This document shows positions 1,708 through 64,000 of a stretch of DNA of 64,000 bases, one piece after another. How positions within the stretch are numbered: position 1 is the first letter of the stretch; each line of letters begins with the position of its first letter. A model generated the notes under the pieces. That model had not been told where the DNA came from and ran no database searches. It saw only the letters and a list, made by a program, of their open reading frames with translations. This stretch comes from an uncultured virus (IMG/VR IMGVR_UViG_3300011006_000550). Lineage: Duplodnaviria > Heunggongvirae > Uroviricota > Caudoviricetes. A program made the translations under genes and the position numbers. The stretch lies in the IMG/VR virus record IMGVR_UViG_3300011006_000550; one strand, given 5' to 3'.

Positions 1708-1811
1708 GGGAACATAGCTCAGTGGTAGGAGCCGCAGGAAAAAGCTGTTGATGTTTGCCATATAAAACAAGATACCTGTGTGTGTCGGTGGTTCGATTCC
1801 ACCTGTTCCCT
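1708..1811 (+). ncRNA. tRNA-like RNA with an enlarged (~36 nt) anticodon loop
   Basis: acceptor GGGAACA/TGTTCCC, D arm GCTC-AGTGGTAG-GAGC, stem CGCAGG/CCTGTG, T arm GGTGG-TTCGATT-CCACC. Confidence 0.75.
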
Positions 1812-17260: not shown

Positions 17261-17467
17261 ATGGATCAAAAAGAGAAAGAAGAAAATGTGAAGAATGCAG
17301 TCCACACTCTTGTTGAGAAACTTGAGGAAGCTGCCAACATCGCACGTCGTAACTACGATGATGCAAAGGCATGTCTTGACGAGGAAGCCGCCAAGAAGTA
17401 CGAAAACCTGTCTATGAGCATCTGCTTCGACTTGCTCAAGGCATCAGAACTTGATGACACGCTCTGA
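17261..17467 (+). CDS. hypothetical protein
   Basis: 68-aa ORF. Confidence 0.6.
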   Translation: MDQKEKEENVKNAVHTLVEKLEEAANIARRNYDDAKACLDEEAAKKYENLSMSICFDLLKASELDDTL

Positions 17468-48311: not shown

Positions 48312-48361
48312 GATGTTCTAATTTCTAAGTTAATATTGATGATTTCAATGTTATCCTTTAG

Positions 48362-48434
48362 TGGCGGGAAGCGGACTCGAACCGCTGACCTCAAGGCTAT
48401 GATCCTCGCAAGCTACCAACTGCTCCATCCCGCG
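48362..48434 (-). tRNA. tRNA-Met(CAT), initiator-like
   Basis: CGCGGGA/TCCCGCC acceptor with unpaired C1, anticodon loop AT-CAT-AG, T arm AGCGG-TTCGAGT-CCGCT; no encoded CCA. Confidence 0.85.
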
Positions 48435-60268: not shown

Positions 60269-60295
60269 ACGCAGACGGAAACAGACGGAAAAGAC

Positions 60296-60326
60296 GAAGG
60301 TAGGGAAATTCCTACCTTCTCTTTTT
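60296..60326 (+). terminator. intrinsic terminator
   Basis: GAAGGTAGG-gaaatt-CCTACCTTC-tcTTTTT. Confidence 0.75.
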
Positions 60327-60353
60327 GTGCCCTGTCTTTCCAGGCCCTAAGAA

Positions 60354-60413
60354 ATCCCCTGACGAGTCTTTGAGAATTAAGACGAAACCACAGATCTGTT
60401 CTGTGGTCGGGAT
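60354..60413 (+). ncRNA. hammerhead ribozyme (type I topology)
   Basis: ATCCC-CTGACGA-GTCTT-tgagaatt-AAGAC-GAAA-CCACAGA-tctgt-TCTGTGG-TC-GGGAT: full core, three perfect stems, GUC site. Confidence 0.9.
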
Positions 60414-60470
60414 AATCCTTTTGTGTTTTTCCTCAGTGTATTGTCCGGCTGAGCGAACGGACTGAACGAT

Positions 60471-60839
60471 TTGAACGAACGAACGATGAATAAGAGTGAA
60501 CGATTGATGAACGAGCGAATGATGTTTGTCACAAGACGTGGCCAGTCTGCTGAGATTCAGAGAAAGAACTGGCTGAGAAGACTTAGAACAAAGAGGTCTG
60601 CCGATCCCGAAGGATGGGTGACTGCAAAATTTGTTGGTCAGATGGGATTTACAAACTTTAATTTTTGTGCACATTCATGGAGAGCTATCAAGATGGAAGC
60701 CAAAATTATCGCTTCACTTCAACATGAGCCTATCGAAGTTTTGGATGCAAATACACTGATTCCATTATTCATATGTCTTCCTTGCTTTGATTCGCGTGAA
60801 GATATTATTTCATACACAGAACGTGCATTTCAGAATTAA
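60471..60839 (+). CDS. hypothetical protein (true start probably MMFVTRR)
   Basis: ORF between ribozyme and structured region; its first codons derive from GAACGA repeats. Confidence 0.5.
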   Translation: MNERTMNKSERLMNERMMFVTRRGQSAEIQRKNWLRRLRTKRSADPEGWVTAKFVGQMGFTNFNFCAHSWRAIKMEAKIIASLQHEPIEVLDANTLIPLFICLPCFDSREDIISYTERAFQN

Positions 60840-61500
60840 GTACGATAACACAGAGCACAGGCGCAAGCCTGTAATGTGGCTCACCTCATGGTGAACGGTT
60901 GCAAGCCCGTGCAAACAACATTCAAACGGTGAAAATGTAACGTGGAGGGGCGCAAGCCATAGCCACTACCGCACAGAGAAACCGAGCGACAACGAGCGTT
61001 TTGAACGACTTCCAGCTAATTACTTGATTTTTGTCGCCAGTGGGAGTATTGCAGCCGACCGGCGGGGTGAAACTAAAGTCCCGCAAGCCCCGCAAGGGAC
61101 GAGTGACTGTTACAAATCATATTCTTAGATTATTTCTCCCGTGAGGGAGTACGATAATAACGGATAGCTACTGTCCGAGAGCGACTTGAGCAATCAAGTA
61201 CGATGAACGAGTGAGTTTATCGTGGTGGTTCCCGCCAAGAGTACGAAAGCACATTTAATCACTTTAGGATGCTACGCAGTATGCAGGGCTTTGATGGTCA
61301 GGCAGCTGGCAATGAAAGACATTAAGGGTGCAAGACCCATAGCATAAAGAACGGTTTGACAGTACGATTCATAAAACTGCCACACGGAACGGTTGCAAGT
61401 AAAGAGGCCCGAAAGGGGACTTGCAGGAGAGAACGAGTACGATAACAAAAACGAAGTTCCGGAGACTACGGGAGAGAGCAGGGAAACCTGCTCTCTCTTA
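60840..61500 (+). ncRNA. putative large structured non-coding RNA or RNA cluster
   Basis: no credible ORF; many GNRA-capped hairpins on the + strand; repeated AGTACGAT. Confidence 0.6.
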
Positions 61501-61529
61501 CTTTCAACCAATTAAAAACAAGTACGATT

Positions 61530-61739
61530 ATGATTAAGAGAATTGCTTTGCATCTTATCGCCCTGGTGGTACTGATGCCGTGTATGTTGGTGTTTAATAT
61601 CAGCGAGAAGTTATGGGTAAATATCCTTGGACTGATTTATTGTTGCTATTTGTACATCATCCTGAACGAGAGCGATGCAGCCAAGCGTTTTGTTCGTCGT
61701 TACTACCATGAGATCCTCCGTTTGCAGAACATGTTGTAG
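61530..61739 (+). CDS. small membrane protein
   Basis: two hydrophobic segments; ends TAG. Confidence 0.65.
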   Translation: MIKRIALHLIALVVLMPCMLVFNISEKLWVNILGLIYCCYLYIILNESDAAKRFVRRYYHEILRLQNML

Positions 61740-61796
61740 TTTCTCTGATTTTTGTGGCAGAAGGCTGCAAAAATCGCTCACTTTCAACCACTAAAA

Positions 61797-61904
61797 ATGA
61801 ACAATATGTATTACGTAGAGATTGACAACGGAGAGAGATTCTATTTTGGCGACGATTTCAACGCTGCCGCAGTGTTCAACCATGCCGTGAATGACAGGCA
61901 TTAG
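61797..61904 (+). CDS. 35-aa peptide (not in the ORF track)
   Basis: MNNMYYVEIDNGERFYFGDDFNAAAVFNHAVNDRH; stop lies in the conserved intergenic element. Confidence 0.55.
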   Translation: MNNMYYVEIDNGERFYFGDDFNAAAVFNHAVNDRH

Positions 61905-61954
61905 TCTTCTTTCGGCCATTGTATGGCCGAGCTATTAACCAAAGTACGATTATT

Positions 61955-62158
61955 ATGACAGACAGAAAATTTGAGCATCTTACTGATGTGGTTGATTTCT
62001 TCAGTTGGAAGCAGTTCGACGAGAAAGAGAGGTTTTCTTTGAGTGAGGACCAGCGAAGACAGCTTACCGAGGTACGCGACGAACTCGAAGACTATTCGAG
62101 GTCTGGCGATGCGGTTGCAGATCTTTGGCTTGAATGTGCGAACGAGTTGCTGAATTAG
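61955..62158 (+). CDS. small acidic hypothetical protein
   Basis: start MTDRKF just after the element; ends TAG. Confidence 0.65.
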   Translation: MTDRKFEHLTDVVDFFSWKQFDEKERFSLSEDQRRQLTEVRDELEDYSRSGDAVADLWLECANELLN

Positions 62159-62204
62159 TCTCTTGGAGCCTGTTGGCTCCGCTTATAACCAAAACTTACA
62201 TGAT

Positions 62205-62465
62205 ATGAAAAGAAATGCTTTACTTAGGACGAGTGCTATCTTCAAGTGTATTGTCACATTCAAGAACGGCACTCACGCAGTTATCAGAATGACCATTGAC
62301 ATGGTAGCGAAAATCACGTATGAGTTCAGGGAGTTTCAGCGTAACATCTTCTCAGAGACATGGCTTCTCTGGGTGAGCGCAACGGAGATTCTTAACATCA
62401 CAGAGATTCGTTCTTGCAAGTTCATCAACGAAAACACTGGTGTTGAGTTCCTTACGATTGATTAG
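62205..62465 (+). CDS. small hypothetical protein
   Basis: start MKRNALL just after the element; ends TAG. Confidence 0.65.
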   Translation: MKRNALLRTSAIFKCIVTFKNGTHAVIRMTIDMVAKITYEFREFQRNIFSETWLLWVSATEILNITEIRSCKFINENTGVEFLTID

Positions 62466-62514
62466 TCTTTTGGGAATCTTGCATGATTCCCGCTATTCAC
62501 CAATATTCAAGAGT

Positions 62515-62940
62515 ATGTTACAATCAGAGTTTTACGACAGGACGCACGTTACTCTCTCAGCAGAGCAGTACGGCGAGGTAGAGAACATCTACAACAGGTG
62601 TCAGATGGATAAGGACGAGTTCTGCAGGCTGTGGCTTGAGAATCGTGACAACAAAATCATCAAAGAACTGATGGACCACATCATGAACACCGAAAAGAAG
62701 TTGTATTTTGCAAAGGAAAAAGCTGCCAAATGCGACAAAGCGATTAATGACGAGCGCGAAAAATGTAAGGAGCACATTGAGAGCCTTGGGCGCAAGGTCG
62801 TTGCGAACATCGACGATGAAACAAAGTTATACGATGCCATTGAAGAGGAGTTCACGCTTGATTTCATCATCAAGGTCAAGTTGCAGGAAAACATGGATCT
62901 CGATCTGCACGAACGGCAGCACCTCATTGAGAAACTTTAG
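62515..62940 (+). CDS. hypothetical protein
   Basis: start MLQSEFYDRT...MDKDEFCRLW; ends TAG. Confidence 0.7.
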   Translation: MLQSEFYDRTHVTLSAEQYGEVENIYNRCQMDKDEFCRLWLENRDNKIIKELMDHIMNTEKKLYFAKEKAAKCDKAINDEREKCKEHIESLGRKVVANIDDETKLYDAIEEEFTLDFIIKVKLQENMDLDLHERQHLIEKL

Positions 62941-62984
62941 TCTTCGCAGCCGAACGGCTGCACTACAACCAAACTATCAGAATT

Positions 62985-63281
62985 ATGAAATATATGGCAA
63001 CGTTTGATGCTTGGAAGTTGGGAACTTTCGACATCATTTTGGAAAAGTACGATGCAGATTGCTGTTCTCACCCAGGCCCGTGTGACTTGGATTGTGAGCG
63101 AACGATTAATCTTGATTATGTCAAAGAACAACTCAAGGAAATCACCTCTGAGCAGATCCGTCAGGTCTTGATAGACTATGGCCTTGAAGATGCCGACGAG
63201 AAAGACCGCAAGCAACTTGAGACGTATATTGTCTGGCTTGCAGCGGGTGACATCATAGACGGGAACTGTACTGAATGTTAG
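62985..63281 (+). CDS. small acidic hypothetical protein
   Basis: CSHPGPCD...WLAAGDI; ends TAG. Confidence 0.7.
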   Translation: MKYMATFDAWKLGTFDIILEKYDADCCSHPGPCDLDCERTINLDYVKEQLKEITSEQIRQVLIDYGLEDADEKDRKQLETYIVWLAAGDIIDGNCTEC

Positions 63282-63343
63282 TCTCTATCGGGCAGTGCCC
63301 GACTATAAACCAATTTAACTTATTATTAGAGGAGATATAGTTT

Positions 63344-63796
63344 ATGAAAGAAACATTTTGCCCTTACTGTGGTTCTGAGAATATTACTATTCAGGCTACA
63401 GACCTTTTAGAGTGTAATGATTGTAAAGAGTTGTTTACTCATGAAGATGTAGAACATAATATTCTTCGTGATAAAATCAGCAGCATCTGCTCTGCTTTCG
63501 AGGCAACTGAGGATAATCCCATTAACTGTATCAGGGAGGATGCTATGGAACTCCACATAGAAGGCATTACAGAAGCAGCACAGGGACTTTCTGAATCAGA
63601 GAAGCCACAGGTAAGCACTGTTTTCCATGATCCGGAAGGAATCGTGTGGATTACCTTTTTAGAATATCCTTTTGGGGGGTCGCCTTGTAACAGTGAACCA
63701 ATGGAACTTGATAGTATTTCTATCAATGATTCTCTGAAAGAAATTCTGTCGTGGCTTGAAGAAAACCTGAGTGTCAACGCTCTTGGAAGATGTTAG
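63344..63796 (+). CDS. zinc-ribbon-containing acidic protein
   Basis: CPYCGS...ECNDC; ends TAG. Confidence 0.7.
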   Translation: MKETFCPYCGSENITIQATDLLECNDCKELFTHEDVEHNILRDKISSICSAFEATEDNPINCIREDAMELHIEGITEAAQGLSESEKPQVSTVFHDPEGIVWITFLEYPFGGSPCNSEPMELDSISINDSLKEILSWLEENLSVNALGRC

Positions 63797-63841
63797 TCTC
63801 TATCGGGCATTCGCCCGAACTATTCACCAATATTTTTGATT

Positions 63842-64000
63842 ATGGAATTTGTTCACACAGAAATCAAGGAGCATCCTCTACGAGATTGTTTAATGTTGTG
63901 GATTCCAGAGCTTCCTTTTGTGCCTCCTTTGTTTGGAACAAAGAAGGAATTAGAAGAAGCGAGAGTATTTGCAGAACAAAAAGCAGAGGATTATCTTAAA
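63842..64000 (+). CDS. hypothetical protein, runs off the window
   Basis: ATG after the last element; MEFVHTEIKEHPLRDCLMLWIPELP... open to the window end. Confidence 0.55.
   Translation, partial: MEFVHTEIKEHPLRDCLMLWIPELPFVPPLFGTKKELEEARVFAEQKAEDYLK

Follow-up and report, generated by a model that had tools for sequence, protein, structure and literature searches.

A 64,000-nt stretch of DNA from an uncultured virus (IMG/VR record IMGVR_UViG_3300011006_000550; Duplodnaviria, Heunggongvirae, Uroviricota, Caudoviricetes), referred to here as the window, appears to encode between positions 60849 and 61497 a single RNA with a conserved multi-hairpin fold, whose predicted processing would take place at a twister ribozyme forming its 5' end. 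As judged by sequence comparison, the body of this RNA represents a new family of large structured RNAs of phages, for which at least 11 members were found in gut phages, and it carries several same-strand copies of a short motif, AGUACGA (AGTACGA in DNA). The RNA body and its motif system are thus the parts that appear to be new, and the twister, together with a probable hammerhead ribozyme upstream, appears to belong to what is already known. All coordinates refer to the window and to its + strand unless stated otherwise, and those of individual features are collected in Table 1.

Relatives of the RNA were found by exact-word scans with conserved RNA words in two collections, and comprise six viral contigs (L045, L260, L284, L266, L268 and L291) and four metagenome contigs (L245, L246, L251 and L252). 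They share a common plan, in which an upstream gene with its terminator, a first ribozyme, variable small open reading frames (ORFs) and a type-P5 twister are followed by an RNA of 0.6-1.0 kb, a GAGAGAG...CUCUCUC hairpin and the first downstream gene. GenBank phages gave no relatives of the region at either the DNA or the protein level, and the nearest record (G001) is without it; a 15-mer scan of the viral contigs gave mostly chance matches. Three alignments were built, A1 of six full-length sequences, A2 of 11 sequences (the window and its ten relatives) and A3 of eight sequences covering the twister.

The conserved fold is supported by covariation among these homologs. In A2, 32 of the 85 pairs predicted by RNAalifold were compensatory, and in A1, 50 of 186 pairs were altered on both sides, as against 20.3 in shuffled alignments (0 of 500 reached 50) and 6-15 when the partners were slid, with the reservation that the A1 pair counts are biased in favor of a structure that was itself derived from A1. 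The clearest helices are the long-range helix, the hairpin enclosed by it, the hairpins at 61136 and 61184, a variable 12-bp hairpin and the 3' terminal hairpin, the last of which covaries in both A1 and A2. For example, five of the six pairs of the long-range helix CGGAAC/GUUCCG (A2 columns 466-471 with 543-548) have changed on both sides, and the helix reads UCCCAC/GUGGGA in relatives; the same holds for four of the six pairs of the inner TGCAAG/CTTGCA hairpin (A2 columns 475-480 with 507-512). In the most conserved core the hairpins covary, and the three motif sites at 61148, 61197 and 61240 are retained in 10 of the 11 family members, L291 being without the first part. In addition, insertions and deletions of 1-2 nt separate close relatives across the RNA region.

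These results bear out an initial annotation of the window, which had proposed a structured, strand-specific non-coding RNA with six hairpins and without a credible ORF. All six hairpins are found in the sequence. Those at 60857, 61136, 61184 and 61472 retain their pairing in relatives through two-sided changes, the stem TGCAAG/CTTGCA that encloses the hairpin at 61408 covaries, and a basal C.A mismatch in the hairpin at 61089 becomes U.G in two relatives. The longest + strand ORF in 60911-61529 has 41 amino acids (aa); a 79-aa ORF on the - strand has a TTG start. The same annotation had held that the RNA could not be assigned to a known class, which stands for the body, since 60911-61500 gave no Rfam match at gathering score, GOLLD and ROOL included, and at E values up to 10 only chance-level hits to MIR535 and PrrB_RsmZ (the latter 14.7 bits, E 1.8, cut-off 44); it does not stand for the 5' end, which is a known twister.

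The RNA is present in an RNA library. Metatranscriptome run X21 contains a 604-nt contig, 90-95% alike, that spans 60898-61476 at a depth of 14.5, and the X21 contigs neighboring it have depths of 2.5-4.7. This contig falls short of the predicted 5' end of the RNA by about 25 nt and of the 3' end by about 21 nt, and its bounds are a weak hint to those ends, because contigs cannot prove RNA ends. Neither the uncovered stretches in the RNA runs X20-X22 nor the small shares of these runs count as evidence in one direction or the other.

The twister ribozyme at the 5' end appears to be a plain member of its known family, with self-cleavage predicted between U60872 and A60873. Its P1 is the ACAGGC-GCAA-GCCTGT hairpin at 60857 mentioned above, and P1, P2, P3, P4 and the UAA cut site are all present. 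In A3, 95.2% of cells are paired, as against 22-38% with slid partners, and 10 of 21 pairs have changed on both sides (P1 three of five, P3 four of four, P4 three of three), P2 being paired and invariant. Under the two-pseudoknot pairing scheme of twisters, the putative partners G7-C8-A9/U86-G87-C88 and G43-C44/G91-C92 (A3 numbering) can pair in all eight sequences and never vary. The Rfam model RF02684 scores at or above its cut-off in seven loci (the window, L245, L246, L045, L260, L284 and L266; 39.7-46.9 bits in the relatives) and below it in L252 and L268. A twister directly precedes the RNA in 10 of the 10 family members that reach that far, the 5' end of L251 being cut off. Nothing structural sets these ribozymes apart from other RF02684 twisters; what differs is that here they cap a 0.6-kb structured RNA at its 5' end, and that the P1 loop of four relatives (L045, L260, L284 and L268) hosts the AGUACGA motif.

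About 440 nt upstream of the twister lies a hammerhead-like element, and both ribozymes had been missed in the initial annotation. A hammerhead core consists of CUGANGA...GAAA, an NUH cut triplet and three stems. Here the core CUGACGAG...CGAAAC...GUC is intact by eye and stems I-III are present, and the predicted cut position at C60408 was placed by the NUH rule. The element scores below the Rfam cut-offs (29.3 vs 56.3 bits for RAGATH-1-hammerhead, RF03152; 19.6 vs 34 bits for Hammerhead_1, RF00163). Its core is identical in four loci (the window, L245, L246 and L260), stem III differing in L260, and we regard it as a probable hammerhead ribozyme.

A second, upstream ribozyme is found in nine of the ten loci. 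It is hammerhead-like in the four just named and twister-P1-like in five (L045, L252, L284, L266 and L268; 47-58 bits, below the cut-off of 67.2); the remaining locus, L291, has a single twister-P1-like ribozyme, with a score in the same range and likewise below the cut-off, and no ORFs. The upstream ribozyme thus appears to be interchangeable, one of the two slots being fillable by either ribozyme class. Since ribozymes stand on both sides of it, the variable ORF cassette would be cut free at both ends. The terminator-like hairpin of the upstream gene ends 16 nt before the hammerhead, which makes it probable that the unit downstream of it arises by read-through and is afterwards released by cutting. 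In the window, the cassette holds a 122-aa ORF that has no Pfam or PHROG match and in whose place the relatives have other ORFs. To our knowledge, it has been unclear ever since twister and hammerhead ribozymes were discovered what they do in phage genomes. In the present loci they are given a readable job, as the twister would determine where a large conserved RNA begins in every relative long enough, and the second ribozyme, with cleavage predicted, would free a swappable ORF cassette in nine of ten loci.

Two further observations concern the cassette. GAACGA repeats fill the leader and first codons of the 122-aa ORF (60440-60520), where they read Asn-Glu-Arg in frame; they follow the first ribozyme in every relative, and GAACGAT is one base off the motif core. 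A DNA relative in run X4 skips 60484-60838, 61045-61137, 61382-61462 and 61502-61766, stretches that include the ORF between the ribozymes and a membrane-protein gene downstream, so that the cargo is swapped and the ribozymes and the RNA core stay.

The motif is strongly overrepresented and clustered. The whole window holds 15 copies of AGTACGA on both strands, where 4.56 are expected and 0 of 100 shuffles got to 15. Eight of them lie on the + strand within 60839-61949, where about 0.04 would be expected on one strand over 1.1 kb (scaled from the whole-window expectation); seven of these read AGTACGAT, and the one at 61240 reads AGTACGAA. A ninth + strand copy follows at 63046, the other six are dispersed, with the one at 17397 on the + strand and the remaining five on the - strand, and another is seen just beyond the window end in the identical contig L001. 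The RNA body itself has five copies against 0.058 expected, with a maximum of two in 1000 mononucleotide shuffles. The initial annotation had listed the eight clustered copies, judged that far less than one was expected by chance and placed two of them just before start codons. Every coordinate and both sequence variants were recovered, and two copies indeed precede start codons, the one at 61521 standing directly before ATG 61530 and the one at 61943 before ATG 61955.

Similarly, each family member carries 4-13 copies of AGUACGA(U) within 494-968 nt, where 0.04-0.09 are expected. Apart from the three core sites, motif sites have been gained and lost by point changes with their number kept; for example, the window has AGAGCGA at a site that reads AGTACGA in L260, L284 and L268. 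Some relatives bear the motif in the loop of the terminal hairpin (L045, L260, L284 and L291). In L260, read on the reverse strand, the hairpin-motif-hairpin-motif-hairpin core is duplicated in tandem at about 1150-1340 of the oriented locus, giving 13 motif copies.

Table 1. Features of the ribozyme-capped RNA locus and copies of the AGTACGA motif in the window
Feature	Position	Strand	Remarks
Intrinsic-terminator-like hairpin and T run	60289..60326	+	Inverted repeat I9, arms 60289-60304 / 60311-60326; closes upstream 204-aa gene
Hammerhead-like ribozyme (probable), type I, RAGATH-1-like form	60342..60413	+	Predicted cut 3' of C60408
122-aa basic ORF	60471..60839	+	Between the two ribozymes, behind GAACGA-rich leader
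AGTACGA copy	60839..60845	+	Immediately 5' of twister
Type-P5 twister ribozyme	60849..60910	+	Rfam RF02684, 43.5 bits vs cut-off 37.6
Putative non-coding RNA body	60873..61497	+	About 625 nt, from twister cut to end of 3' hairpin; alignments A1, A2
Most conserved core of RNA body	61112..61267	+	Hairpins 61136 and 61184, CGGA...UCCG, GGUGG-UUC-CCGCC; motif sites 61148, 61197, 61240
AGTACGA copy	61148..61154	+	Directly follows hairpin 61136
AGTACGA copy	61197..61203	+	AGU closes hairpin 61184; ACGAU pairs with AUCGU downstream
AGTACGA copy, AGTACGAA variant	61240..61246	+	3 nt past GGUGG hairpin
AGTACGA copy	61361..61367	+	Loop of UGACAG...CUGCCA hairpin
Long-range helix CGGAAC/GUUCCG	61383..61464	+	Encloses TGCAAG...CTTGCA hairpin (tip CCC-GAAA-GGG) and motif site 61436
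AGTACGA copy	61436..61442	+	Linker within long-range helix; in 4/11 family members (window, L245, L266, L291)
3' terminal hairpin GAGAGAGCAGG-GAAA-CCUGCUCUCUC	61472..61497	+	Perfect 11-nt arms (I25); terminator-like, weak U tract
AGTACGA copy	61521..61527	+	Directly 5' of ATG of small membrane-protein gene; same layout in 6/11 family members
69-aa two-helix membrane-protein gene	61530..61739	+	Homologous to second-clade 77-aa protein
AGTACGA copy	61943..61949	+	5 nt upstream of ATG 61955
AGTACGA copy	63046..63052	+	Within 98-aa ORF

The motif is also found in a second clade of phages, which was recovered from the viral contigs by a scan for two AGTACGAT copies at a distance of 35-65 nt and comprises 33 loci with at least four same-strand copies. 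The structured RNA and both ribozymes were not found in any of the 19 second-clade loci scanned for them. In this clade, the consensus extends to AGTACGATAATTG (12-13 nt), and five to nine copies of it stand around and inside the gene for a 77-aa two-helix membrane protein, the only protein common to both motif-bearing clades among the fetched loci. Within this gene the motif is in frame and is read Ser-Thr-Ile-Ile at three places. Across 28 such genes, 81 of 81 Ser-Thr pairs at motif sites are written AGTACG, as against six codon pairs used for a control Ser-Thr pair; these genes had been chosen for at least two motifs, which makes the count partly circular, and only about a third of the 81 pairs are independent. 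At gene junctions of the second clade, an order of hairpin, motif, leader of about 25 nt and ATG recurs. In five related genomes (68-90 kb), the motif lies on one strand within 0.5-2 kb, with a few scattered copies besides. A second-clade array with its membrane-protein gene also occurs inside a 4-Mb chromosome contig of the Prevotella family (G354 contig C1, 915422-915571), which suggests a prophage and gives an indication of the host range.

Taken together, the evidence shows selection on the nucleotide sequence, copy number and strand of the motif, tied to the membrane-protein gene and, in the clade of the window, to the RNA. To explain it, we tentatively favor recognition of the motif by a protein on RNA, with the RNA as a stable decoy or regulatory platform, a reading that we place a little below an even chance. 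The twister cut would leave a 5'-OH end, which together with the 3' hairpin would make the RNA long-lived, and the RNA would then offer a multi-site platform to a sequence-specific protein, be it a binder or an endoribonuclease. The parallel would be CsrB with CsrA, or the trp leader with TRAP, the factor being titrated or concentrated by the RNA. The same protein may also act on the mRNA of the neighboring membrane protein, where the motif stands at the start codon (in 6 of 11 family members) or in frame within the gene (in the second clade). A sponge for a protein that also regulates translation, or an array processed at the motif, had been suggested in the initial annotation, and the leading reading continues these ideas. 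As the motif is strictly conserved and, in the second clade, is also forced into a coding frame, it offers a direct handle for experiments.

Several points weigh against recognition by a protein on RNA. No binding protein was found, the neighboring proteins being without a helpful Pfam, PHROG or Atlas match. In single-sequence partition-function folding, the predicted unpaired probability was 0.39 at the motif and 0.40 in the background (permutation p 0.69), and two helices incorporate the motif at site 61197. The 12-13-nt conserved stretch of the second clade has a length typical of DNA sites and would be long for a site on single-stranded RNA. In addition, ribozyme cleavage is a prediction, and the RNA ends are unreadable from contigs. 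[quoted passage not shown]

The foremost of these rivals, which we consider doubtful, is a stoperator-like system, in which a phage repressor would bind an asymmetric 12-13-bp site on double-stranded DNA and block transcription in an orientation-dependent manner, silencing the membrane-protein gene and its neighbors in the prophage, with the RNA merely tolerating the sites. A precedent exists in mycobacteriophage L5, which has more than 20 asymmetric 13-mer sites whose orientation follows the direction of transcription (PMC9283540). The present motif is likewise asymmetric and always co-oriented with transcription, and its sites lie in short intergenic spaces beside start codons and sometimes within ORFs. 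The extension of the consensus to AGTACGATAATTG, the missing accessibility signal and the way in which the RNA structure adapts around site 61197 all agree with such operators, and the phages look temperate, the nearest record (G001) being classed as a provirus and the second-clade array of G354 lying in a chromosome contig. However, a stoperator set is spread over the genome and bound by the immunity repressor, whereas the present sites, apart from a few scattered copies, crowd within 0.5-3 kb, three of them belong to the most conserved RNA core and are found there in 10 of 11 family members, the copy number tracks the RNA (4-13 in every member), and no repressor gene was recognized among the window proteins. 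The stoperators of Cluster A mycobacteriophages (PMC9283540) share with our sites the asymmetric 12-13-nt sequence, the orientation with transcription and the short intergenic spaces near gene starts, and differ in that ours are clustered and embedded in a conserved RNA. If the partner were a repressor, stoperator-type silencing would be extended to phages of Bacteroidota.

A link to host CRISPR repeats came from a scan of bacterial genomes for three spaced motif copies, which found CRISPR arrays with a period of 63-68 and repeats of 29-33 nt containing AGTACGATTA. Altogether 22 such arrays were extracted, mostly from Bacteroidota and Ignavibacteriota, in addition to three of a 36-nt repeat family; they occur in a Prevotella metagenome-assembled genome (MAG) from goat omasum, a Prevotellaceae MAG, a Bacteroidaceae MAG from buffalo rumen and Phocaeicola. 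All five genomes checked have cas6 and cas3 at most about 15 kb away from the array, and the cas operon runs in such a direction that the crRNA (CRISPR RNA) strand bears the reverse complement of the motif. An AT-rich flank with a common TGTCGA-like element is found on the cas side in 11 of the 13 arrays printed, indicating the same orientation, and decayed far-end repeats in L296 and L350 agree with it. Type I-B-like repeats end in ATTGAAAY, which also agrees with the orientation assigned. The phage motif is thus antisense to the most conserved block of the type I-B repeat of the likely hosts, Prevotella-type bacteria, and many copies are present in both partners.

On this basis, the motif might act as an anti-repeat RNA that pairs with type I-B repeat RNA of the host (the precursor, pre-crRNA, or the 3' handle of crRNA) and disturbs crRNA maturation or Cascade, which we think rather improbable. 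Equally improbable in our view is its wording as an antisense decoy, in which many copies of AGUACGAU would pair with the conserved 5' block of the repeats, tie up the pre-crRNA or crRNA 3' handle and so blunt immunity; such repeats can number from dozens to more than 100 in one host pre-crRNA. Perfect complementarity, however, extends over only 8 nt, position 9 being A in 88% of 180 phage sites and T in the repeats. No full repeat unit is present in the window (0 matches to a 25-nt repeat pattern with up to three mismatches), no such CRISPR array was found in any of four genomes with a second-clade motif array, none with the extended phage consensus in 401 Prevotella-family genomes, and none of 525 spacers matches the phage loci examined beyond chance matches of 14-19 nt. 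Moreover, given thousands of repeat families, some match is expected for any 8-mer; by our own estimate, the chance of a match within the host clade is about 1-2%. RNA anti-CRISPRs (Racrs) are comparable as phage non-coding RNAs with sequence related to host CRISPR repeats, but they mimic whole repeats in the sense direction (PMC10651486), whereas here only 8-10 nt match, in antisense, in many copies and without a whole unit. If true, the link would mean an RNA anti-CRISPR of a new kind, acting by complementarity rather than mimicry and delivered as a ribozyme-stabilized RNA. As a separate observation, a 36-nt repeat with 30-nt spacers in L366, L367 and L368 (Vicingaceae, Lutibacter) contains AGTACGAT near one end and has an anti-repeat-like stretch in its flank; it is probably of type II and unrelated to the phage.

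We find it very improbable that the motif is a processing signal only, at or beside which a host or phage endoribonuclease would cut, much as T4 RegB cuts at GGAG, to leave hairpin-protected upstream fragments and messages with short leaders, the RNA being a precursor chopped into hairpins. The recurrent order of hairpin, motif, leader and ATG at the second-clade junctions would suit such cutting, as would the direct joining of hairpins by the motif in the RNA core, but the RNA contig of X21 passes five motif sites uncut, with the proviso that contigs cannot show ends either way. Finally, a replication origin, a packaging site or a Chi-like site is unlikely, as the spacing is irregular (43-125 nt) and unphased, the motif is too long for Chi and the terminase and primase genes are about 10 kb and about 5 kb away from its sites, respectively; self-pairing via the GUAC palindrome was rejected, since it would give only 4 bp.

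Under the favored reading of a protein-binding platform, the closest functional parallels would be CsrB/RsmZ and the TRAP-bound trp leader, with many short motifs on one RNA and the same motif at the start codons of targets. CsrB/RsmZ sponges carry repeated GGA in hairpin loops, which is bound by CsrA/RsmA; here, the motif is AGUACGA rather than GGA or GAG/UAG, and its spacing is irregular. GOLLD and ROOL resemble the RNA in being several hundred nucleotides long, rich in hairpins, phage-borne and of unknown function, but the body has no match to them in Rfam even at E up to 10, and we know of neither being ribozyme-capped or bearing a repeated motif of 7-12 nt.

RAGATH RNAs are defined from neighborhoods of twister and hammerhead ribozymes, and they were reportedly found beside these ribozymes by Weinberg and colleagues in 2015. 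Given its pair of a twister and a hammerhead-like element, the present locus is therefore a classic neighborhood of this kind, with the two ribozymes less than 500 nt apart in a phage accessory region and a structured RNA beside them. The RNA body, however, matches no RAGATH model in Rfam, a comparison that covers Rfam models only. No counterpart of the RNA body and motif system was found in Rfam or in text searches of the literature, and overlap with an unpublished RAGATH candidate is possible; a text search for the motif returned primer lists only, and the word 'RAGATH' does not occur in the main text of a 2017 paper on 224 candidate RNAs.

The gene content of the window includes a tape measure protein, a major head protein, a portal, a terminase, a D5-type primase, RecT and two DNA methylases, and the phage is long-tailed and not crAss-like. 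A crAss-like phage with promoters for a virion RNA polymerase had been considered from an initial match. That match extends over just 37 nt in the core of the hammerhead, none of the window proteins was recognized as a phage RNA polymerase, and the idea was dropped. Early long non-coding RNAs exist in phi14:2, which serves as an analogy only.

Some minor observations concern the remainder of the window. A standard connector joins the small accessory genes. Each of them closes with TAGTCT, behind which stand a variable hairpin and a CTATTAACCAA-like word, and a 10-30-nt leader then runs up to the ATG of the next gene; the connector is found at 61740-61800, 61905-61955, 62158-62205, 62465-62515, 62940-62985, 63281-63344 and 63796-63842. 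At 1708-1811 (+ strand), the Rfam tRNA model scores 42.3 bits for a sequence with a 42-nt insertion in the anticodon arm that was not called by ARAGORN; this tRNA may be intron-bearing or disrupted. A further tRNA with anticodon CAT, at 48361-48434 on the - strand, adjoins the terminase gene, and one may speculate that it is of the Ile-2 type that reads AUA, a codon within the in-frame motif of the second-clade phages.

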